Origin: Bdellovibrionota bacterium
GTDB taxonomy: Bacteria; Bdellovibrionota_C; UBA2361; OMII01
Assembly (NCBI GenBank): GCA_044356215.1
Contig: JBIKWQ010000069.1
Span: 1-18,460 of the forward strand
Length of the DNA: 18,460 nucleotides
Direction: 5' to 3'
Shown: in pieces, positions 2,461 through 12,125 of the stretch
Layout: every line of letters begins with the position of its first letter
How positions within the stretch are numbered: position 1 is the stretch's first letter
The notes under the pieces: model-generated
The model's input: the letters and a program-made list of their open reading frames with translations, nothing else
The model's database searches: none
What the model was told of the DNA's origin: nothing
Position numbers and translations under genes: made by a program

Positions 2461-3216
2461 ATGACTGAAGCTACGTTACATCATGTGTGCGAAGGGGCTG
2501 TCGTTCTCTATAAGCGAAACGGTAGCAATACAGAGTGCTGGTATGCACGATTTAAGAACCCCAAGACGGGTAAATGGAAGAAGTTCAGCACCAAGGTCAC
2601 CGACCTCGAAAAAGCGAAGCAGGTGGCTCAACGACAGTTCGATGTGCGAGTCGAGCTAATCAAGAACAACATCGACATCGACACGAAGCGGTTCTCATAC
2701 GTCGCTGATTACGTCACCAAACAGCATCAGGCTGATATCGAGGCTGGTACTGGCAAGAAGACCTACGAAGACTACATCCGTGTCATCAATCGCTTCAAAC
2801 AGTTCTTTGGAAACAAGTATATTGGCAATATCACCTATCAAGACCTCGTTGAGTACGACCAGGAACGTACTCGAAAGCTAGGCAGAAAAGCCAAACAATC
2901 AACGGTCAATCTCGCAAACGTCGCTCTTACCAAGGTATTCAAGACAGCCATTGAAAAGGGCTGGATGCACCAGTCGCAAGCTATATCGTTCAGAAACGAC
3001 GGGAAGAAAGGGGAGCGACGACCTTACTTTGAGCTGCACGAATATCAAAAGCTTTATAGGTTCATGCGTGAGTACGTAAAGCTCACAACCAAAGACAGCC
3101 CTCAAGGGGGCGTTAAGAACCAGACGCTCATGATTCGAGAGCTGATGCGAGATTACGTGCTGTTTCTGGCGAATACAGGCTTACGGCACGGCACAGAGAC
3201 CAAGAACCTTAGGTGG
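2461..3216 (+). pseudogene. Tyrosine integrase, N-terminal part (interrupted by IS21)
   Basis: Arm-binding-like N-terminus (WYARF...KKFST), core-binding domain and catalytic R in FLANTGLRHGTE. The frame continues at 6619 once the IS and one TSD are removed. Confidence 0.93.
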
Positions 3217-3242
3217 TGTTGACGCCGGCCAAAAACCGCATC

Positions 3243-3320
3243 TAAACGCCGACGATAAACGCCGACGATAAACCCCGACGATAAACCCCGACGATAAACA
3301 CCGACGACAAACGCCGGTGA
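3243..3320 (+). repeat. 6 x 13-bp tandem repeat (TAAACNCCGACGA) in the IS end, putative IstA binding sites
   Basis: Units start at 3243, 3256, 3269, 3282, 3295 and 3308 (last one degenerate). One copy lies within the opposite IR. Confidence 0.9.
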
Positions 3321-3358
3321 AGATGCTTTTTAATGACTTTGAGTTTGGCATGTGTGAA

Positions 3359-3679
3359 TTATCGAGAGCGAGGGGACGGCGGAAGTAAGGGGGTCGATTG
3401 TTCAGTGAGCATGGATGATAGCAAGTTAACGGTAGCAATGAATGAGAGGCGCTGCACCCGCATGACTATGTCGATAGTGTTATAATTTCGTTGACAAGTG
3501 AAGCAGCGAGCTAGGTTGGTGGCTGAGTTAATCGCTGTATTGAACTCTCCGCAGTCTGGGCAGACGAATCGAAGAAATCCCTCGCGATGTTTGGTGGGTA
3601 GTTCCAAGTAGTCGCTTATCACAGTCACTATCGAGACGTGATTGCGCAAACGATAGAGCTGAGAGGCTGATACCCGCAT
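3359..3679 (-). CDS. CHC2-like zinc-finger protein (DnaG zinc-binding-domain-like) within IS21
   Basis: 106 aa: FVCPDC...NLARCFTCQRNYNTIDIVMRVQRLSFIATVNLL resembles the primase ZBD pattern. ATG overlaps the istB stop (TGATG). Confidence 0.75.
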   Translation of the reverse strand: MRVSASQLYRLRNHVSIVTVISDYLELPTKHREGFLRFVCPDCGEFNTAINSATNLARCFTCQRNYNTIDIVMRVQRLSFIATVNLLSSMLTEQSTPLLPPSPRSR

Positions 3680-4443
3680 CAAGCTTTTCTTTCCTTAAGA
3701 GTATTTGTTCTTAGAGCCTCACGTGCTCGCGCGTCTTTGAGCCTAAATGACTCATTAACATCGATGGTGAAGATCTCGGAATAATGAATGAGCCTATCAA
3801 CCATCGGCACCAGACAAGCTGAGCTGGGGAAGACCCCATTCCATTGACTAACCCCTAGGTTTGAGGTCAACACTATCGGTTTGCTTTGATAACGACGTGT
3901 AACCAGCTCAAAAAGGTGCTCGGCGTTGGAGGTGCTTGGGTCAAAATACCCCAGCTCGTCAATCACTAAGATATCAGGACGAGCATAGTGCTTCAGACGA
4001 GCGGCAAGCGCGGAGCCGGTTCGCTGCTCAGCAAGATCATGTAACAGAGCGCTCGCTGAGATAAACAAGCTGGTGTATCCCTGTAACACCGCATGGTGGG
4101 CAAGGTTCTGCGCTATCATGGTTTTGCCGGCGCCACTGGGACCGACAAGGATTATGTTGGTTGCATCAGCTATGAACTCTAAGCTAAAGAGCTCCTCAAT
4201 TCGGGCGCGGTCGATCTCTTGTGGGTGCGACCAATCGAAGTCAGCCAGTGGTTTGAAACGTCCAACTCTGCTACGCTTTGTTCGTCGCTCGAGACCACGT
4301 TTTGCGCGCGCCTGCTCTTCGCACTCAATCAGCTTTGGTAACCAATCCGCCGCGCCAAGCTGTTCCCAGTGACTAAGTACACCGTAGAGTCCCAATGCTT
4401 TAGCTTTTTCCTTGAGTGAATCATAATTATTTTTTGCCGCCAT
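3679..4443 (-). CDS. istB: IS21 helper AAA+ ATPase IstB
   Basis: KPLADFDW, Walker A GPSGAGKT, Walker B ILVIDELGY, TSNL...W, DRLIH, ESFR. Confidence 0.95.
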   Translation of the reverse strand: MAAKNNYDSLKEKAKALGLYGVLSHWEQLGAADWLPKLIECEEQARAKRGLERRTKRSRVGRFKPLADFDWSHPQEIDRARIEELFSLEFIADATNIILVGPSGAGKTMIAQNLAHHAVLQGYTSLFISASALLHDLAEQRTGSALAARLKHYARPDILVIDELGYFDPSTSNAEHLFELVTRRYQSKPIVLTSNLGVSQWNGVFPSSACLVPMVDRLIHYSEIFTIDVNESFRLKDARAREALRTNTLKERKA

Positions 4444-4444
4444 A

Positions 4445-5947
4445 TTATTCCTCCCCGTTTTCTTTCTTGTTTGTTAATTGCTCATACTGTCCAAGTTCAT
4501 GTTGTTTTACCGGCGTAAGGTCATGCCTGAGCGCGTGGTCAGGTAATGCCAGAGGGAGAGCGGCTGCTTTTCCAGCTTTAGCTCTCCGGGTCTCTAAACG
4601 CTCGGTTATGGAAGAAATAGTGTATTCCCCTTGCTGTAGCGCATCCTGAATGGCGCTGGTGAGTTCTAAAGCCCCATACATCTCAAGCAGCTTGCGCAAG
4701 GAGCGCTTAGCATCCAGCATTGAGTAGTCTTGCTCACTCATGCCATCAAAGAGATCTTTTACTGATGAGCCGAGGCACCGCACTAAATCATCAATGCTGT
4801 TGTCGTTACTGGCGAGACGCTTATACTCCCGGAGTTCACTGATATGTGCCGGATTGTCGTAGCGTTTACCTTTGGTGTAGTGCCTTGCGTGAGTAGCGAT
4901 TGTTTCTGTTCCGGATACAATACGCACTGATTCCTCAGAGGCGAAGACGCTCACTATCGTATGCACGTAGTGGAACGGTACAGAGTAATCGTTTAGGTCG
5001 AACCTAACGTAGGGGGTCTTGCCTATAGAGACGTCTCTACGCTCTTCGCACGGGTAAAGAGGCTCAGAGAGGGGCACTAGTACCTCGCGCTCTGAGCGGA
5101 GCGCATCGTGGACCTTTAGTGTCTTGTCATCCTGCCAAGCACGCTCAAGCGATACAGTGTCGCACCAGACGAGCGCTTGCTGATTAAGATCCTCTATATC
5201 CTTAAACTTTCTACCGGAAAAAAAATTATCCCGCACGTATCGAATAGCTCTCTCCGTGCGCCCCTTCTCATTACCCCGAGCTGGTGCGGCTACCCTAATC
5301 GAGAACCTTCTGTGCTGGGCGTAGCTCACTATCTGGGGATTTAGCTTAATAGCGCTCCCGATCCTTTCAAGAACAACGCTTTTCAAGTTGTCGTACAGGC
5401 AGTGTTTCGGCGCTCCTTGAAACCAGCCGAATGCGCTTTCATGACCCCGAAGAAAGCAGCTCATGGACTGAGAGACAAAAAAACGGATAAAGATAGCTCT
5501 TGAGTAGGAAAGCGTCATGACAAACGCCACGAGGGGACGCCTATGCCCCTGGAAATAAATCGAATTAAAGTGCCCCCAGTCAACTTGAGCTTCCTCGCCT
5601 CTTATGCGGTCAAGCCGCAAAAATGCCTCTCTGCGCTTGGGGCGAATCTCTTTGATGAGGGAGCGAAACTGAGATATTTTCCCACGATATCCGCGAGAGG
5701 TAACCATCATAAAGAGACGCGTCGCGGTTAAGGTTGGATAGGTTTTGAGTGTGTGGTTGATAAACGGCAGATGCTCATCGATGAGCCGCGGCCGGGAAGC
5801 TTTCGTAGGGATACACCCGTCTTGCGTTAAGGCGCGTCTTACCGTGGTTGCGTGTAGGTTGAGTTGGCTAGCTATCGTTCCAACTCGCCACTTTTCGACG
5901 TGGTAGAGTCGAAGTATCTCAGCCTCTTGTTCTTTGGATATAGTCAT
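4445..5947 (-). CDS. istA: IS21 DDE transposase IstA
   Basis: N-terminal HTH, GEEAQVDWG, LSYSR, YDNLKS, KGRTERAIRYVR, and Mu-like C-terminal VRFDLNDYSVP. Confidence 0.95.
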   Translation of the reverse strand: MTISKEQEAEILRLYHVEKWRVGTIASQLNLHATTVRRALTQDGCIPTKASRPRLIDEHLPFINHTLKTYPTLTATRLFMMVTSRGYRGKISQFRSLIKEIRPKRREAFLRLDRIRGEEAQVDWGHFNSIYFQGHRRPLVAFVMTLSYSRAIFIRFFVSQSMSCFLRGHESAFGWFQGAPKHCLYDNLKSVVLERIGSAIKLNPQIVSYAQHRRFSIRVAAPARGNEKGRTERAIRYVRDNFFSGRKFKDIEDLNQQALVWCDTVSLERAWQDDKTLKVHDALRSEREVLVPLSEPLYPCEERRDVSIGKTPYVRFDLNDYSVPFHYVHTIVSVFASEESVRIVSGTETIATHARHYTKGKRYDNPAHISELREYKRLASNDNSIDDLVRCLGSSVKDLFDGMSEQDYSMLDAKRSLRKLLEMYGALELTSAIQDALQQGEYTISSITERLETRRAKAGKAAALPLALPDHALRHDLTPVKQHELGQYEQLTNKKENGEE

Positions 5948-6332
5948 TTGGTGCCTTTGGAATCTTCTGTAAAGTATTTAAGCGCGTGAATCCATTGCTC
6001 AATGCTCCACATCGGCAACACTGAGCTAGGCACTTCCCGCCATGCAATGGGGCAGACTCTGGATGAAGGCTAGGTTGATTGGAACCCTGATGAGTCACTC
6101 TTTGAGTTTTTTTTCTGTAATGCCGCTGTCTTTTGCAATGATTATCTCTGCCGGTAGGGGTCTCCTGGTAGCGCCTGGAAGCACTGCCAACTGTCTTGCG
6201 CCTGCTAACAAGGGAGCATTCCCGGGAGCAGTATCGATTGCCCCTGTCACAAGAGCGACAAATCACGCACATTTTGCCGCAGCGATGGCATGTAAATCGC
6301 CTAAAACTATTATCTAAATCGTCAGCGCTAAT
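5919..6332 (-). CDS. Cys-rich, basic putative zinc-finger protein upstream of istA (start uncertain)
   Basis: The frame is open upstream of the ATG at 6272 and adds a CHRC pair: FTCHRCGKMCVICRSCDRGNRYCSREC...CCRCG. An in-frame stop lies at 6368-6366. ATT at 6332 is a candidate start. Confidence 0.7.
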   Translation of the reverse strand: MSADDLDNSFRRFTCHRCGKMCVICRSCDRGNRYCSRECSLVSRRKTVGSASRRYQETPTGRDNHCKRQRHYRKKTQRVTHQGSNQPSLHPESAPLHGGKCLAQCCRCGALSNGFTRLNTLQKIPKAPNDYIQRTRG

Positions 6333-6354
6333 TTTCCCCCCAATATGCTGGATT

Positions 6355-6454
6355 AGCTCAGGGGTTCATGTATCCTTGTACCTACGTGGTCTTCTTGGCC
6401 CCGAGCTGGCGCGGCAGGGTTTATGCGTCCAAAATACACAAGCTCCGCCGCGCC
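6355..6454 (-). ncRNA. Putative structured RNA leader (two adjacent stem-loops) in the IS21 5' end
   Basis: Minus strand: GGCGCGGCGG/CUGCCGCGCC stem with inner UUGUGU/GCAUAA, then AGCUC-GGGG/CCCC-U-GAGCU stem with a 34-nt loop. G-U pairs form only on the minus (sense) strand. Confidence 0.4.
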
Positions 6455-6618
6455 CTTTTATTCTTACGCGCTTCGTGCCTGCTACTCAAAATTATTTGCC
6501 CCCTTCAAAGCCGCTGCGGGGTACGGCGGGGTACGGTTCTTACAAACCTTTGGCGGGGTACCGCTGTTCAATTGTCATCGGCGTTTAGATGCGGATCTTG
6601 GCCGGTGTTAACAGGTGG

Positions 6619-7233
6619 AAGCACATTTCTGAAACGACGATGAATGGACAGAAGTACATCGTCATCGCCCTTGAGAAGGGAAAGACAGGTAAACGCACCA
6701 TCGTCTGTCGTCACAGTGTCAGAAAGTACCTAGTTCGCATCAAAGACCGATTTGCACATCTCAAAGAGCGACAGCTAGGGCAGATGCTTGATATCGATGA
6801 GCTTGTATTTCGATGTCGTGATGGCTCAGTGCCGAAGGACTTTCACGGAGCGTTCAGAATCATGCTTGAGAAGGCGAAGCTGCTTAACGACGTCAATGGG
6901 TCTCGACGGTCTCTATACTCGCTACGACACACCTATGCGACCTTCCAGATTATCTACAACAGACTCGACCTGCATACCCTAGCGAAGAATATGGGGACGT
7001 CTATAGCGATGCTGGAGCGGCATTATTCGCATCTGGAGGTGCTGCATAGGGCTGAGGCGTTGGCCGGCAAAGCGGAGCAGGGGAAACCACGGGGTAAGGG
7101 TAGGGTAACGGAGACTCGAATCATTGAGCTTGGGGGCGAATCTGAGGGCTTTGGCGGGGATTTAAATGATTCTCCAGATAGAACGTGTGATGTTCTTACT
7201 GCTCAAAAATCCTTAAAGGCCTCAGACCGCTAG
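6619..7233 (+). pseudogene. Tyrosine integrase, C-terminal part
   Basis: KGKTG, LYSLRHTYAT, LAKNMGTS and catalytic Tyr in ERHY. Joins in frame to 2461-3216 (…KNLRW|KHIS…), giving 456 aa. Confidence 0.93.
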
Positions 7234-7235
7234 TC

Positions 7236-7433
7236 TCATCTAATGCCCCGCAGTAAACAGAAGTTCTCAAAGACTTTAGGCCCGACCCCCTTTATCGGAA
7301 GAAGCATTTCTTTTAGCTTTTCCTTGTTGCCTTCGGCACAAAACTGATCGAAGTTCTTCCCATTTTCCCCGGACAGCTTGGCCGCCATGTCAAAAAGCCA
7401 TATTCAGGTCGTTATGCTGAATTCCTCAATCAT
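7236..7433 (-). pseudogene. Small helix-hairpin-helix protein remnant at the end of the RM operon
   Basis: ATG at 7433 overlaps the helicase stop, with an in-frame TGA at 7406. From ATG 7388 the frame gives 50 aa containing LLPIKGVGPKV (HhH motif). Confidence 0.5.
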
Positions 7434-9951
7434 TCGATACAGCCTCAAAGATGGACCCAGCTACCTTCGTGTATTCTGTCTCATGCAGTACCGTATCAAA
7501 GAGACCAATGCTTTCTCCCTCATGACGATTGACACCGGCATAGGCGAGACTAGAATCTTCGTACCTTTTGAACTTGTAAACGGCATCATTCATGAGTGCG
7601 CTATTAAAGACCCCAAGGCTCACTAAAAGCTCGAAGTCTTTGATCGTCATTCCACACACCTTCTTGAACAGCCCTGGCTCAAGTTGCGTTATTACATCTT
7701 TTAGGGATCTCTCACGGTTGTCGGTGAGATACATGAATATTGGAATGCGAGTTGCAAATTTAATCAGCTTCTCCTGAATCTGCTTGCGAAGGTTTTTGTA
7801 CTCTTTCTCTTCTTCCGAAAGTTTTCTTCTCTCTCTCTCGGTTAAATCACGGTCATTTGATTCCTTCTTTATTTTTGAGACTGAATCGGATTTGTTAATA
7901 ATAGTCTCTATTTCCTGATTAAGATTTCTGAATCCCTCAATACTCATAAGAGCTTTCATTGCACGTTCATCATCCATCAGCCGCTGCAATGTTCTATTGT
8001 CAACATTTACCAGCAATGCACTTTCCCACCTTCTTGCAAGTAGAGTTGCAGTGGTGCCACTTAATGCCATGTCGAGGATGCCTGCCGCATCAACTTCTTT
8101 CATCGAACTGCCGTCATAGGCAAGAACAGGCAAGAAACTGATGAACTCCTCCACTTTCTTTTCGGGATTCTGCTCATCAATACTCAGTCTGCAGCTGTAC
8201 TCAGCGATCTGCCTGAGTGCTCTTTCAGGAGCGAAGTCGAAAACATAGCACTCCTCTTTGAGAATAATCTCTTTATTGGGATTCAATTTATCTGGATTCT
8301 TTATGGTCCATGGTGTCTGTACCCTGAACGCCGCCTGAAAATAGGTCTCAGGTGACGAACAGCTTCTTAGCATCAATATTCCAGACCACGGCTTGACGGA
8401 AATGCCAGTGGTGAGTTTTCCGCACGATAACGTGATCGTCTTGGTTTTGAGCGGATCTTCCATTTTCTTGAACAAAGGAGGTAAGGCTTTTGCTCCAATA
8501 CCGGCTTCTTTGCCAGCTGCAACGATAACTTCGTAGTCCTGATAAAACCTATTCTGACGCTCAAGAAGTAAATTCTTCATAGCATGGCATGATGCTACCG
8601 TTGGTAGGAACCAGAGAGTGTGAGATAGGACCTTCAAAAGTCGCACATCAGAAAATGGCATTGGGGGTTTTTTTGCTCCCAGCTTGAGATTATCGACCGT
8701 AGTCTCAAGGAACGAACCTCTAATAAGATCAAGCCACTTCTGCACCTCATTTTCGTAGGTGAATGCAGCCAAATCACCATCCCCCTCGGCAGAAAAGAAC
8801 GTGTTGAGGTCAAACTGGTTAAACTCCCCTTGCATCGCAACTTCTCGAATTGCATCGGGAAGCTGATAGGTGAGGAGTACCATTCGAGGGAGTGACGAAT
8901 ATGGATTGCCTGCACCATCCCAATTCTCTTTCGCACGTTGCTCGTCGGAATAAGTCCAGTTGAATATCTGCTCTTCGATGAACTCACCTGACTGCAACGC
9001 ACGGAAGGGCGTCCCAGAGAGATAGAGATAATGGTCCGTGGTTATCGGAAGAATCGACTCTTCAAAGTCAGCTACTCCTATTCCTTGCGCATAATCTTGC
9101 TCCTGCTTACTCTCCGCCTCAAAAAGATCTTTGGCATTCTCACGCCATGCACCATAGTGATACTCGTCAAAAATGACGCAGTCCCAGTTTATGGTATGGA
9201 CCCATTCATTCTTTGTCTTTAGGCCACCAGTGCTCTTATTTCTGCCTAAGTAGTCTTGAAAAGATCCAAAGCAAACAAACGCACGTCTTCGATCAATCTC
9301 CTCGTAGTGCAGACCCCCAGGAGAAATAAACTGCCATTTTTCAAAATCAATATGAGTTTTGAGATCTTCCTCCCAGGCACTTTGGACGGCTGGCTTAAAG
9401 GTAAGTACAAGAACCCTCTTCCAGTTCATTTTCTTTGCCAACTGGTATGCTGCGAAGGTTTTTCCGAAACGCATCTTGGCGTTCCAAAGGAAATGTGGTA
9501 CTTTATCAGAGTTCTCCTGCTTAAATCTTTTAAAGTACAAGGCTGTCTTTTCTACAGCTTCTATTTGCTCAGGTCGTAAGTCAAAGTTGAGATGTCTGCT
9601 CTCGTAGTTCGTTTGGCCATTGCGGACAGCAATTACTGCCGCTTTGACCTGTTTTACTTCACAGTGAAACCACTCACCGTCAGGATTCGCTATTCCCTGA
9701 CTTTTTAAAAATCTGTGAATGTCTCGGTCAGTGAAGGAACCACCATCGTTTCGCATGGCGGAGGCTTCAAAAACAATTTCATACGGTAAAGGTCCTGGTC
9801 TCTTAGTTGGGTACTGTTGAGCAACCCGCTCTCGCACATCTCCGGTTGTGTAACCGATCTTGAGCAGGCCTTTGTATTGGGGATTCGTATCCTGATACGC
9901 ATATACAGAGGGAGTTGCCTCGGGACGAGTAGGAAAGAAGTCTTTAGACAT
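7426..9951 (-). CDS. T5orf172/GIY-YIG nuclease fused to SF2 (ResIII-like) helicase; restriction subunit
   Basis: N-terminal VYAY...LLKIGYT...R...GEWF; Walker A AKMRFGKT, DEYH, SGT, QAAFRVQT; coiled-coil C-terminus. Confidence 0.85.
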   Translation of the reverse strand: MSKDFFPTRPEATPSVYAYQDTNPQYKGLLKIGYTTGDVRERVAQQYPTKRPGPLPYEIVFEASAMRNDGGSFTDRDIHRFLKSQGIANPDGEWFHCEVKQVKAAVIAVRNGQTNYESRHLNFDLRPEQIEAVEKTALYFKRFKQENSDKVPHFLWNAKMRFGKTFAAYQLAKKMNWKRVLVLTFKPAVQSAWEEDLKTHIDFEKWQFISPGGLHYEEIDRRRAFVCFGSFQDYLGRNKSTGGLKTKNEWVHTINWDCVIFDEYHYGAWRENAKDLFEAESKQEQDYAQGIGVADFEESILPITTDHYLYLSGTPFRALQSGEFIEEQIFNWTYSDEQRAKENWDGAGNPYSSLPRMVLLTYQLPDAIREVAMQGEFNQFDLNTFFSAEGDGDLAAFTYENEVQKWLDLIRGSFLETTVDNLKLGAKKPPMPFSDVRLLKVLSHTLWFLPTVASCHAMKNLLLERQNRFYQDYEVIVAAGKEAGIGAKALPPLFKKMEDPLKTKTITLSCGKLTTGISVKPWSGILMLRSCSSPETYFQAAFRVQTPWTIKNPDKLNPNKEIILKEECYVFDFAPERALRQIAEYSCRLSIDEQNPEKKVEEFISFLPVLAYDGSSMKEVDAAGILDMALSGTTATLLARRWESALLVNVDNRTLQRLMDDERAMKALMSIEGFRNLNQEIETIINKSDSVSKIKKESNDRDLTERERRKLSEEEKEYKNLRKQIQEKLIKFATRIPIFMYLTDNRERSLKDVITQLEPGLFKKVCGMTIKDFELLVSLGVFNSALMNDAVYKFKRYEDSSLAYAGVNRHEGESIGLFDTVLHETEYTKVAGSIFEAVSND

Positions 9952-11455
9952 TAATCGACTCCATCGGTCGTACTATTGAATCGATGAATGAAATTTCCTC
10001 GTTAGTAAGACCATACTTCTTCACCAGCTTTCGGTCGGTCCATTCGGAAGAGAAGTCCTGTAACGGAACAAACGAATAAACTTTCTTCATGCAGTCTTGC
10101 GTGTTCTTCTGAAGCGTTACAAGAAAATGAAAAAATTTCGTATTCACGTAACTAAGAACATTTTCACACTCACTCTTGGATCTGAAAGGCCCTACCAGTA
10201 GGTATGTTTCGGTGCAACATGAATTGGGTTCACAATATAGGGGCTTTATAATATCTGTCTTGCTATCACCTGTTCCAACCGCTTTTGGTACGATAAGTTT
10301 ATGCTCATCAACGCTGTCTAGTCGTCGTGTTATGTCTCCTCGGTTAACGTATTCAATTCTTCTGTTCCCATAGAGCTTTACGGCTCCAGCGAAGGGAGTC
10401 TTTGACCCACTATAGTTAGTCGTAAAACCGAAGGGCTTCTTGGTGCTGACAATCGAATCAAAAGTAGGTTCATTCCTAGCACGAATTTTATGCAATATCG
10501 GAATGGCATCATTGTATCTAATTACAATGTCACAGTTTTTCTCTTTCAAAGGTCGATCTGAGCTAGACACTACTTCATTGCCACTGTGCGTCAGGAAACA
10601 AACGTTGCCAGTGTAGTTTTTTTCCCATAAGAAGTAGCAAACTCCGCCCTTAATCTCGACTCCAGGAAAACAATCGGAGGCATTTGGGAAGTCGTGTAGA
10701 TATTTGATATGATTGTCGTTAATCATTCGCTCTCTAAACTCGTCTAGACCCCATCCCCCTGCAAACCATCGGGAGGGAATGATCATGGCAAGAAAGTTAG
10801 GCTTCATTTTTTTGGCTTGATCAACGAACAGATGATAAAGAGGCTTTGCTTGCGCACCATTATCTTCACCAGCCGTAGAGAGCTGATAAGGAGGGTTACC
10901 TATGATTACATCAAATTTCATGTTGAATATCTCCTGCGGGTTGATAGTGTGTACAAATTGGTATGCATGGGATTCAAATTCAGAGCCTCGCTCGTAACCT
11001 TTTTCGCTAGCTCCACAAAAGCTACACCTTCCGCTTTCCCAGGAGTGAAAGGTCGAGACGTAACGAATATTGCCCGTATCATCACTAAAATGACTGCACA
11101 CGGAATATTTTCCATTCGCCTTTTTGGAACAATAGACACTTCTCCTCGACAGTAAGGCCGTCAATTCGGTAATTGCAATTCCGTACAGCTGCTTTGTATA
11201 TATATGATCAAGCCGTGCTTGCAGGTCTGGAATCTCTTCACGCAAACCCTCTATAAGTCTCTTTGCAATCTCTCGAAGGAATACGCCGGACTTACAGGCT
11301 GGATCAAGGAACGTTGCTGTCTTGTCTTTCCAAAGTTCGGCCGGTAAAAGGTCAAGAATCTGGTTTGCTAACCCTGGAGGAGTGAAAACTTCATCATTGC
11401 TTAAGTTAGCAAGGCATGTGAGCACATCTGGATTATAGTTAGCCTCAATCTGCAT
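9944..11455 (-). CDS. N6-adenine DNA methyltransferase (Eco57I-like, gamma order) with C-terminal target-recognition region
   Basis: EVFTP (X), FLDPACKSG (I), YGIAI, DVIIGNPPY (IV), IIPSRW, FPGVEIKGGVCYF. Confidence 0.92.
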   Translation of the reverse strand: MQIEANYNPDVLTCLANLSNDEVFTPPGLANQILDLLPAELWKDKTATFLDPACKSGVFLREIAKRLIEGLREEIPDLQARLDHIYTKQLYGIAITELTALLSRRSVYCSKKANGKYSVCSHFSDDTGNIRYVSTFHSWESGRCSFCGASEKGYERGSEFESHAYQFVHTINPQEIFNMKFDVIIGNPPYQLSTAGEDNGAQAKPLYHLFVDQAKKMKPNFLAMIIPSRWFAGGWGLDEFRERMINDNHIKYLHDFPNASDCFPGVEIKGGVCYFLWEKNYTGNVCFLTHSGNEVVSSSDRPLKEKNCDIVIRYNDAIPILHKIRARNEPTFDSIVSTKKPFGFTTNYSGSKTPFAGAVKLYGNRRIEYVNRGDITRRLDSVDEHKLIVPKAVGTGDSKTDIIKPLYCEPNSCCTETYLLVGPFRSKSECENVLSYVNTKFFHFLVTLQKNTQDCMKKVYSFVPLQDFSSEWTDRKLVKKYGLTNEEISFIDSIVRPMESINV

Positions 11456-12125
11456 CTGCCACCTGCAGGAAATGAATTAAAGGATACTCTTTTGTTGGGC
11501 TGGGCATGAAAACATCGTCGCCAAGGTCGGAAAAAAGGGGCAGATCTCTCATTCCAGCGTGTTGAAGCAGATTTTTGAACGAGAAGTCTCTACGTTTCAG
11601 TTGACTGCCATTAAACGGAGACCATTCAGAGAAAACGATTGGCCTAGGGATAGGTCCAACTGTCATAAGAGTCAGAGCATCACCCCATTCGATGTTTCTA
11701 CCGAGAATAAATTCTGCGGACCGGATACAATCGCTCTTTATGGAAGCTCTAAACATGGCCCTATAGTGATCGATGAAAAGCGAGAGAAGTCGTTTCCGAC
11801 ACCGCTCCACATTATCTTCAAGAATATCGATCCCGTAGATGCTTGATACAGCAAGGATGGCGTACCGTTCGTAATCAAGTTGGCTTCTACTATATCGACT
11901 CTTTACTATTGCCAATTTGCGGCTTAAGACTTCCGCTAGGAAGTTGCCAGTGCCACAAGCTGGTTCTAAAAAGCGAGACTCAATACGCTCGGTCTCTTGA
12001 CTGACCAGGTCGAGCATCTTATTCACGATAGTCTTGGGGGTGTAGACCTCCCCGTGATCACTGACTCGTTGCCGCGAAACGACTAGTTGCTCTTCTTCTA
12101 ATTTTGCAGGCTGTTCGTCGGTCAT
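11445..12125 (-). CDS. Short SAM-binding MTase-like protein lacking the catalytic NPPY motif
   Basis: GEVYTP, FLEPACGTGNFL, IYGIDI and GDAL are present. No (D/N/S)PP(Y/F) in 226 aa. Stop overlaps the start of the next MTase. Confidence 0.8.
   Translation of the reverse strand: MTDEQPAKLEEEQLVVSRQRVSDHGEVYTPKTIVNKMLDLVSQETERIESRFLEPACGTGNFLAEVLSRKLAIVKSRYSRSQLDYERYAILAVSSIYGIDILEDNVERCRKRLLSLFIDHYRAMFRASIKSDCIRSAEFILGRNIEWGDALTLMTVGPIPRPIVFSEWSPFNGSQLKRRDFSFKNLLQHAGMRDLPLFSDLGDDVFMPSPTKEYPLIHFLQVADAD

Follow-up and report, generated by a model that had tools for sequence, protein, structure and literature searches.

Are two proteins, the transposase IstA and its helper ATPase IstB, all that IS21-family insertion sequences (IS) encode for their own movement? 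The question is raised by an 18,460-nt stretch of DNA from a Bdellovibrionota bacterium (GenBank assembly GCA_044356215.1, contig JBIKWQ010000069.1; "the window" below), in which a 3,397-bp IS21-family insertion sequence at 3217-6613 carries four co-oriented genes inside its ends, all on the minus strand: open reading frame 1 (ORF1), istA, istB and ORF4. IS21 encodes two essential proteins, according to the available part of PMC11208146. The window element resembles canonical members of the family (IS21, IS5376) in having IstA and then IstB encoded in tight coupling, TG...CA termini, subterminal repeats and a 5-bp target duplication; it differs from them in that istA and istB are accompanied by two further conserved genes inside the ends. 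We file it as an IS21-family variant. A search of the full-text literature, with ISfinder and subscription journals outside its reach, returned no published description of these additional IS21 ORFs, and the four-gene form is to that extent undescribed.

The two additional genes

5919..6369, minus strand: ORF1, basic protein with eight cysteines (Cys8); listed as 5919-6272, the conserved frame being open from 6365
4445..5947, minus strand: istA, IS21-family DDE transposase, 500 aa (NF033546, 225.5 bits, cut-off 160)
3679..4443, minus strand: istB, AAA+ helper ATPase, 254 aa (PF01695, 180.8 bits, cut-off 24.1)
3359..3679, minus strand: ORF4, DnaG-type zinc-binding domain, 106 aa; its ATG overlaps the istB stop (TGATG)

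ORF1 and istA overlap by 29 nt, istA and istB are separated by a gap of 1 nt, and istB and ORF4 overlap in TGATG; gene order and all three junctions are exactly as given in the initial annotation. IstA also matches Pfam rve and Mu-transpos_C_2, and IstB scores 194.4 bits against NF038214, slightly below the cut-off of 200.

ORF4 is a DnaG-type zinc-binding domain standing alone. It matches PF01807 (Zn_ribbon_DnaG) with 36.3 bits (cut-off 24.9, E value 5.1e-9), and a profile of 37 relatives matches PDB entry 1d0q over residues 4-90, the whole domain, with an E value of 2.8e-4. When an AlphaFold2 model of ORF4 (predicted local distance difference test, pLDDT, 88.8) was compared with the PDB by Foldseek, the top match was again 1d0q (E 2.5e-5, template modelling score 0.68-0.70), followed by 2au3 (E 2.6e-3). 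The likeness to the zinc-binding domain of DnaG thus covers both sequence and predicted fold over some 90 residues. Four cysteines (C40, C43, C59 and C62) are invariant in the 37-sequence alignment; the second ligand, aligned with the histidine of 1d0q, is cysteine in 37/37 sequences, which makes the domain a Cys4 variant of the Cys-His-Cys-Cys site of DnaG. A further difference from DnaG is that the match of ORF4 to the 414-position dnaG model is limited to positions 4-89; ORF4 has neither the TOPRIM polymerase domain nor the domain that binds the helicase DnaB. A search for longer ORF4 relatives found none, which is weak evidence. In PHROGs and PADLOC, ORF4 matched primases and primase-fused proteins, and these only in their zinc-binding-domain segment; beyond that segment, neither ORF4 nor ORF1 matched a defence family. 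A complex prediction for ORF1 with ORF4, run twice and without controls, scored 0.00 and carries no weight for or against an interaction. Elsewhere in the same genome (contig C49, 1402-1758), a solitary ORF4-type gene (L002; 118 aa, 54% identical) occurs without istAB; at its 3' end it overlaps an IS30-like transposase gene that is convergent with it.

ORF1, when read from the listed ATG at 6272, is 117 aa long. This is too short, as it omits an invariant CxxC pair lying upstream. In an alignment of 19 sequences, drawn from the window element and its relatives, from the IstA sister clade and from contexts outside IS21, the family displays eight invariant cysteines and a basic helical middle; eight cysteines would suffice for two zinc sites. 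The initial annotation had described both ORFs as zinc-finger proteins, ORF4 being CHC2-like. The zinc domain of ORF4 is borne out as DnaG-type, with Cys4 in place of CHC2 ligands, and ORF1 turns out to be a Cys8 protein whose conserved frame extends further upstream.

An exhaustive profile search over 1.84 billion entries placed 3,765 cluster representatives in the ORF1 family at E ≤ 1e-3, a number that falls to 2,526 when the threshold is E ≤ 1e-10. A word-based search had found just 1 homologue, a sensitivity artefact in view of these thousands. None of 28 family proteins tested had a Pfam match, protein names were uninformative and the ESM Atlas offered unnamed clusters only. The ORF1 profile gave only chance-level matches to bL35 among PDB sequences, and the structure model, which is mediocre (pLDDT 65.5), had no PDB fold match at E ≤ 0.001, the best ones (YacG, FCS finger) standing at E around 2. 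Within the class of the host, the profile was found in 5 of 124 genomes, where related copies are fragments at contig ends.

We measured selection on all four genes as the ratio of nonsynonymous to synonymous substitution rates (dN/dS), using as reference L014, a relative 81% identical in DNA. The ratios were 0.25-0.29 for ORF1, 0.10 for IstA, 0.067 for IstB and 0.125 for ORF4, which indicates that ORF1 and ORF4 are both under purifying selection; for the antisense ORF lying over ORF1, dN/dS took no meaningful value. The invariant cysteines, the purifying selection, the size of the family, the position upstream of istA and the copies located inside element ends together argue that ORF1 is a real gene.

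How ORF1 is started is less straightforward. Neither in the window (before 6272) nor in L014 does an ATG, GTG or TTG precede the first ORF1 cysteines. The sequences considered in their place are as follows.

ATG 6369 with a +1 shift, ATC 6353 and ATT 6344, minus strand: candidate ORF1 starts
6358..6377, minus strand: AAGGA, 3 nt, then ATG AAC CCC TGA, a mini-ORF of 3 codons, followed by the ORF1 frame at +1

ATC 6353 is conserved, and homologue P0001 has a methionine at the position of ATT 6344. The string AAGGA-TAC-ATG-AAC-CCC-TGA is present in both the window element and L014, within a 34-nt block identical between them (by itself not significant). A single +1 step at CCC-U opens a complete ORF from the ATG of this string in both elements, an open frame that by itself is no evidence. 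CCC_TGA is prone to +1 shifting at more than 1%, as stated in the available part of PMC10861913. CCC_UGA is a candidate site of +1 frameshifting, or of reinitiation, for ORF1. The arrangement recalls programmed +1 frameshifting of the prfB type, in which UGA comes after a shift-prone codon and the rest of the product is read in the +1 frame; it differs in that the candidate shift would occur at codon 3 and has no defined stimulatory element. ORF1 seems to be weakly expressed. It lacks a canonical start, and the ATG-AAC-CCC-UGA preceded by a Shine-Dalgarno sequence lies one base out of frame, suggestive of +1 frameshifting or reinitiation. We rejected a programmed -1 frameshift that would join ORF1 to IstA, istA being at +1 relative to ORF1.

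Conservation with IS21 transposases and with other recombinases

Nine genome loci encoding IstA relatives were compared. ORF1 was found directly upstream of istA in eight of them (IstA 44-100% identical); the ninth, with an IstA 30% identical, lacks it. Using tblastn, we found ORF1 in 27 plasmid records, and in all six plasmid contexts inspected among these it lies just upstream of an IS21 istA, which is truncated in one case and parted from ORF1 by a nested IS21 in another. The latter is a pTi plasmid of Rhizobium rhizogenes (L130), where a second IS21-family element sits between ORF1 and istA in the opposite orientation. ORF1 is mostly unannotated in the plasmid records inspected. On a plasmid of Burkholderia sp. 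PAMC 28687 (L127, 3213-3431), RefSeq has an antisense "hypothetical protein" over an unannotated ORF1 homologue, probably a mis-call. Members of the branch carrying ORF1 occur on plasmids of cultured Proteobacteria (Burkholderia, Cupriavidus, Rhizobium, Aromatoleum and Methylotuvimicrobium). We conclude that a broad, multi-copy IS21 branch has ORF1 as its conserved first gene.

A sister element is present in four copies in one assembly (3,446 bp, 99.8% identity), with different flanks and with all four ORFs inside the ends. Matching 5-bp duplications border three of the four copies, L011 being without matching flanks; a target duplication was also looked for in L014, and none was found. In every element with definable ends, the ORF1 and ORF4 genes lie inside them. 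The duplicated targets seen (GGTGG, GCAGG, CCCCA and GGCGA) point to no single site. ORF4 follows istB only in the closest relatives of the window element (L005, L014, L015 and L046). In the IstA sister clade, an acidic ORF (L094 6754-6945; L095 6651-6863; L007-L011) overlaps the end of istB and carries the motif W-T-P-E...LLDDL; it matches no Pfam family and is annotated only as hypothetical. The proposal of the initial annotation that the two ORFs define an IS21 subgroup, to be checked by their co-occurrence with IstA homologues, is hence upheld in part: both ORFs mark non-canonical IS21 lineages, and ORF1 is kept in 8/9 IstA loci, but ORF4, restricted to the closest relatives, is not fixed in a subgroup defined by IstA.

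To look beyond IS21, we used a metagenome scan with the ORF4 alignment, which returned at least 523 relatives. The best 80 loci were kept and classified by gene clusters and family searches, with L068 counted in the rve+AAA_22 group by gene order. IS21-type IstA/IstB genes lie directly upstream of the ORF4 relative in 18 of the 80; 15 of these 18 belong to a divergent IS21 branch, whose loci contain a Cys-rich ORF and a ParB-like gene in addition. Upstream genes for a DUF6431 protein, an IS481-like rve transposase and an AAA_22 ATPase characterize 17/80 loci. In another 15/80, the downstream genes encode XerC/D-like tyrosine recombinases, as many as three consecutively and with no ATPase partner. 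A c9 protein, a helix-turn-helix (HTH) protein of about 560 aa (c2) and often an AAA_22 ATPase are encoded downstream in 23/80, and seven loci were assigned to no architecture. In 16 loci the ORF4 relative is immediately preceded by an ORF1-family gene, and three of these loci (L024, L058 and L061) are independent detections; in L014, istAB separates the two. Among the 150 best ORF1-family representatives, a single one (P0041) is a fusion of ORF1 to the zinc-binding domain, with all ligands intact. A quick tree of ORF4 relatives (104 columns) groups them by architecture: it needs 19 label changes, where shuffled labels need 50.8 on average. Each architecture nevertheless splits into several groups. 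We conclude that the relatives of ORF4 and ORF1 are a module, its genes usually adjacent, that is common to IS21 and three other recombinase modules.

An annotated case of the divergent IS21 branch lies on plasmid pHRM2a of Desulforapulum autotrophicum HRM2 (L096, 1305-5525), as a five-gene operon of a Cys-rich hypothetical gene followed by genes for ParB, IstA-like, IstB-like and CHC2 proteins. The record labels the IstA-like gene "HTH protein" and the IstB-like gene "ATP-binding protein", leaving a divergent IS21-type element unrecognised.

Ends, mobility and surroundings of the element

3212..3216: left copy of the target-site duplication, GGTGG; at this place the empty-site allele of genome G018 shows a single 5-mer
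3217..3258: downstream terminal inverted repeat (relative to the genes); the gene strand reads ...CAACA
3243..3311: five tandem 13-bp subterminal repeats (CGACGATAAAC..), whose unit is also that of the inverted repeat's inner portion
6516..6564: GCGGGGTAC in three copies, read as GTACCCCGC on the gene strand and located between ORF1 and the inverted repeat upstream of it
6572..6613: upstream terminal inverted repeat; on the gene strand it begins TGTTAACA...
6614..6618: right copy of the target-site duplication, GGTGG
2461..3216, plus strand: 5' part of a tyrosine-integrase gene split by the insertion, with SAM-like integrase domains
6619..7233, plus strand: 3' part of the integrase gene, in frame with the 5' part after removal of the element and one GGTGG

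The element has TGTT...AACA termini, with repeated subterminal units inside them. Its inverted repeats, initially called perfect, pair over 42 nt with 36/42 matching (86% complementary); the GGTGG duplication reported at both ends is indeed there, at 3212-3216 and 6614-6618. The 13-bp repeats are candidate IstA-binding sites, and the 9-bp repeats may be protein-binding sites as well. The subterminal units differ by end (13-mers versus 9-mers), and their copy number varies between the window element and the 81%-identical L014, which has fewer copies of the 13-bp unit and four of the 9-bp unit compared with three in the window.

Among 41 related genomes searched, two of the same genus (G009 and G018) have an intact integrase of 473-480 aa, 98% identical; at this site, G018 has a single 5-mer where the window has two. 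The element itself was found in 20 sequencing runs, which stem from 14 studies and are without exception lake or freshwater metagenomes, one of them perhaps the source sample; no RNA dataset is among the runs listed as carrying it. We compared contigs from four of the 20 runs with the element ends. The empty-site join, 3211/3212 to 6615/6616, was present in contigs of runs X3 and X17, and in contigs of X3, X5 and X17 the termini 3217 and 6613 abutted other, unrelated flanks, which had no evident common site and were not pairable into duplications. In addition, L005, a 3,219-bp contig from another assembly (99.5% identical), starts exactly at 6613. The intact integrase genes, the empty-site joins and the other flanks at the same termini establish that the ends are exact. 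Hence the insertion sequence, with its 5-bp GGTGG duplication, is real and mobile, and its insertion here has hit the integrase gene of a tRNA-Leu island.

L005, whose IstA is identical to that of the window, lies on a contig binned into a metagenome-assembled genome of Bacteroidota (Crocinitomicaceae), reflecting either a mis-binned repeat or spread across phyla. A megablast search of the element against plasmids gave zero matches, and an Rfam scan of 3000-6900 at E ≤ 0.1 found none either. A promoter and terminator scan yielded two terminator-like matches, both within the 13-bp repeats. The surroundings bear the marks of a tRNA-associated genomic island: tRNA-Leu(TAA) at 2209-2293 is followed by the integrase gene (2461-7233), inactivated by the IS. 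On the 3' side of the split gene, three minus-strand ORFs at 7426-12125 match models of type IIG/type II restriction-methyltransferases and look like a split or multi-gene restriction-modification system.

Possible roles of ORF1 and ORF4

ORF1 and ORF4 look like element-borne helpers rather than passengers, as they are conserved inside the ends, translationally coupled and, to judge by dN/dS (0.25-0.29 for ORF1, 0.125 for ORF4), under purifying selection; their recurrence with other recombinases also fits. The initial annotation had arrived at the same view from the coupling. In this four-gene form of IS21, the two extra proteins are probably nucleic-acid-binding helpers that would act at a step common to all these elements, and not as part of the recombinase chemistry. 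The version that we favour within this reading is quite possible, if short of probable. In it, ORF4 would bind single-stranded DNA, or dock on the host primase, at a transposition intermediate that needs DNA synthesis, and ORF1 would bind element DNA, for example the subterminal repeats, keeping expression low. The zinc-binding domain of DnaG acts in trans on a neighbouring primase. Copy-out-paste-in is the presumed mode of movement of IS21 and of IS3/IS481-type elements. IS21 and IS3 are named among the families with circular intermediates needing a replication step in the available part of bioRxiv 10.1101/2023.06.07.543989. The link to priming or single-stranded DNA is the most specific guess, because ORF4 is identified as a primase domain and IS21 and IS3-type elements are believed to use a copy-out step that requires synthesis.

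Two sets of known proteins invite comparison. IEE, a PrimPol-helicase, is likewise primase-related and, according to the portion of that preprint available, acts on copy-out-paste-in insertion sequences, at the point where families that form circular intermediates have to replicate. It differs in being host- or island-encoded, catalytic and of the archaeo-eukaryotic primase class, and in promoting excision; ORF4 is encoded by the element, of DnaG type and devoid of a catalytic domain. Srap (in SEs), GinD (in GInts) and TnpC (in Tn554) are small non-catalytic proteins encoded beside recombinase sets, much as ORF1 and ORF4 relatives lie beside tyrosine-recombinase trios, and are needed for recombination (PMC10214605, available part). 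Unlike for ORF1 and ORF4, no zinc motif is mentioned for them: the word "zinc" occurs 0 times in the part of PMC10214605 available. RIT elements are described in that part with RitA-C only.

A bolder proposal is that the Cys8 protein and the primase zinc-binding domain form a portable module that marks synthesis-needing intermediates, recruits or redirects the host primase and is exchanged among IS21, IS481-like, trio and other elements, its first gene being expressed here through a programmed +1 frameshift at CCC_UGA, codon 3. We regard this combination as improbable.

Several observations weigh against the helper reading or the evidence offered for it. The IstA sister clade (about 45% identical) has no ORF4, with the unrelated 63-72-aa acidic ORF at the same position; since ORF4 is absent there and replaced in this way, it is dispensable for IS21 chemistry. 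A need for replication is not known for the tyrosine-recombinase trios, and a table in PMC10214605 gives RITs as untested. The 80 loci are the best-scoring ones of a single scan, classed by clusters on short contigs, and do not amount to an unbiased census. Of the 16 loci with adjacent genes, 13 had fed the ORF1 profile (A2). P0041, the sole fusion seen, could be a sequencing or gene-calling artefact. ORF1 aligns with the other upstream Cys-rich clusters (c4, c13, c14 and DUF6431) with an hhalign probability of at most 32%, and we do not claim that they are one family. About 0.5 identical runs like the 34-nt block around the candidate ORF1 start are expected by our estimate per 3.3 kb at 81% identity. 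Finally, the draft genome from which the element comes has just one copy of it, and the promoter scan gave no sigma-70-like site on the gene strand.

The main rival to the helper reading is a control switch, in which ORF1, with or without ORF4, would be a DNA-binding regulator that sits on the subterminal repeats or on an operator, represses or times the transposition genes and takes no part in the DNA reactions. The small size, basic character and predicted zinc binding of the proteins suit such a regulator, as do the weak or non-canonical start of ORF1, its place at the head of the IS21 operon and that of the pair at the head of the tyrosine-recombinase and c9/c2 architectures. A regulator would also be compatible with any class of recombinase, which agrees with the modular spread. 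The conserved GTACCCCGC repeats between the element end and ORF1 could be its sites; however, they may be mere IstA sites, as in canonical IS21 (PMC11208146, available part), and a whole primase zinc-binding-domain fold would be odd for a repressor. We rate the control switch as rather doubtful.

We consider it unlikely that ORF4, ORF1 or both are target selectors that dock on IstB, as TniQ/TnsD do on TnsC, and steer insertion to particular DNA or to structures, for example replication forks. Like TniQ/TnsD of Tn7-like elements and Tn5053, ORF4 is a small zinc-containing protein encoded after the gene for the AAA+ regulator of a DDE transposon: it follows the ATPase gene in the IS21-type (18/80) and rve+AAA_22 (17/80) loci as tniQ follows tniB. 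TniQ/TnsD cores hold a zinc finger, and no target selector is reported for IS21, in the available part of PMC10293859. The window copy does sit in an integrase gene, but the duplicated 5-mers vary between copies and the other flanks have no evident common site. Neither ORF1 nor ORF4 matched the TniQ domain (a zinc finger flanked by two helical domains) in Pfam at E ≤ 1, and the fold of ORF4 is that of a primase zinc-binding domain, not of TniQ. The analogy with Tn7 target selectors drawn at the outset is further weakened because relatives of ORF1 and ORF4 also accompany tyrosine-recombinase trios lacking an ATPase partner, in 15/80 loci for ORF4. Very unlikely, in our opinion, are passengers that serve the host or fight other elements (by primase interference or anti-defence), or an ORF1 decaying after loss of its start: the missing canonical start of ORF1 in the window and L014, the solitary ORF4 paralogue without istAB (L002) and the swap of ORF4 for another ORF in the sister clade would fit, but both frames are under purifying selection between 81%-identical elements, the genes lie inside the ends wherever ends are definable and are translationally coupled to istA/istB, and the only match to a defence family is the primase-like zinc-binding-domain segment.

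The consequences concern the IS21 family, which is the structural model for transposases controlled by AAA+ ATPases and is described as a two-protein system. A widespread branch that always has a third protein, and often a fourth, would leave that model incomplete for much of IS21. The thousands of clusters of the ORF1 family, with no Pfam match among those tested, and the possible +1 frameshift represent gaps in annotation. The association of the same small proteins with both DDE transposases and tyrosine recombinases would point to a helper function independent of the chemistry of recombination, and through the primase-derived domain transposition may be tied to host replication in a concrete way that is open to test.

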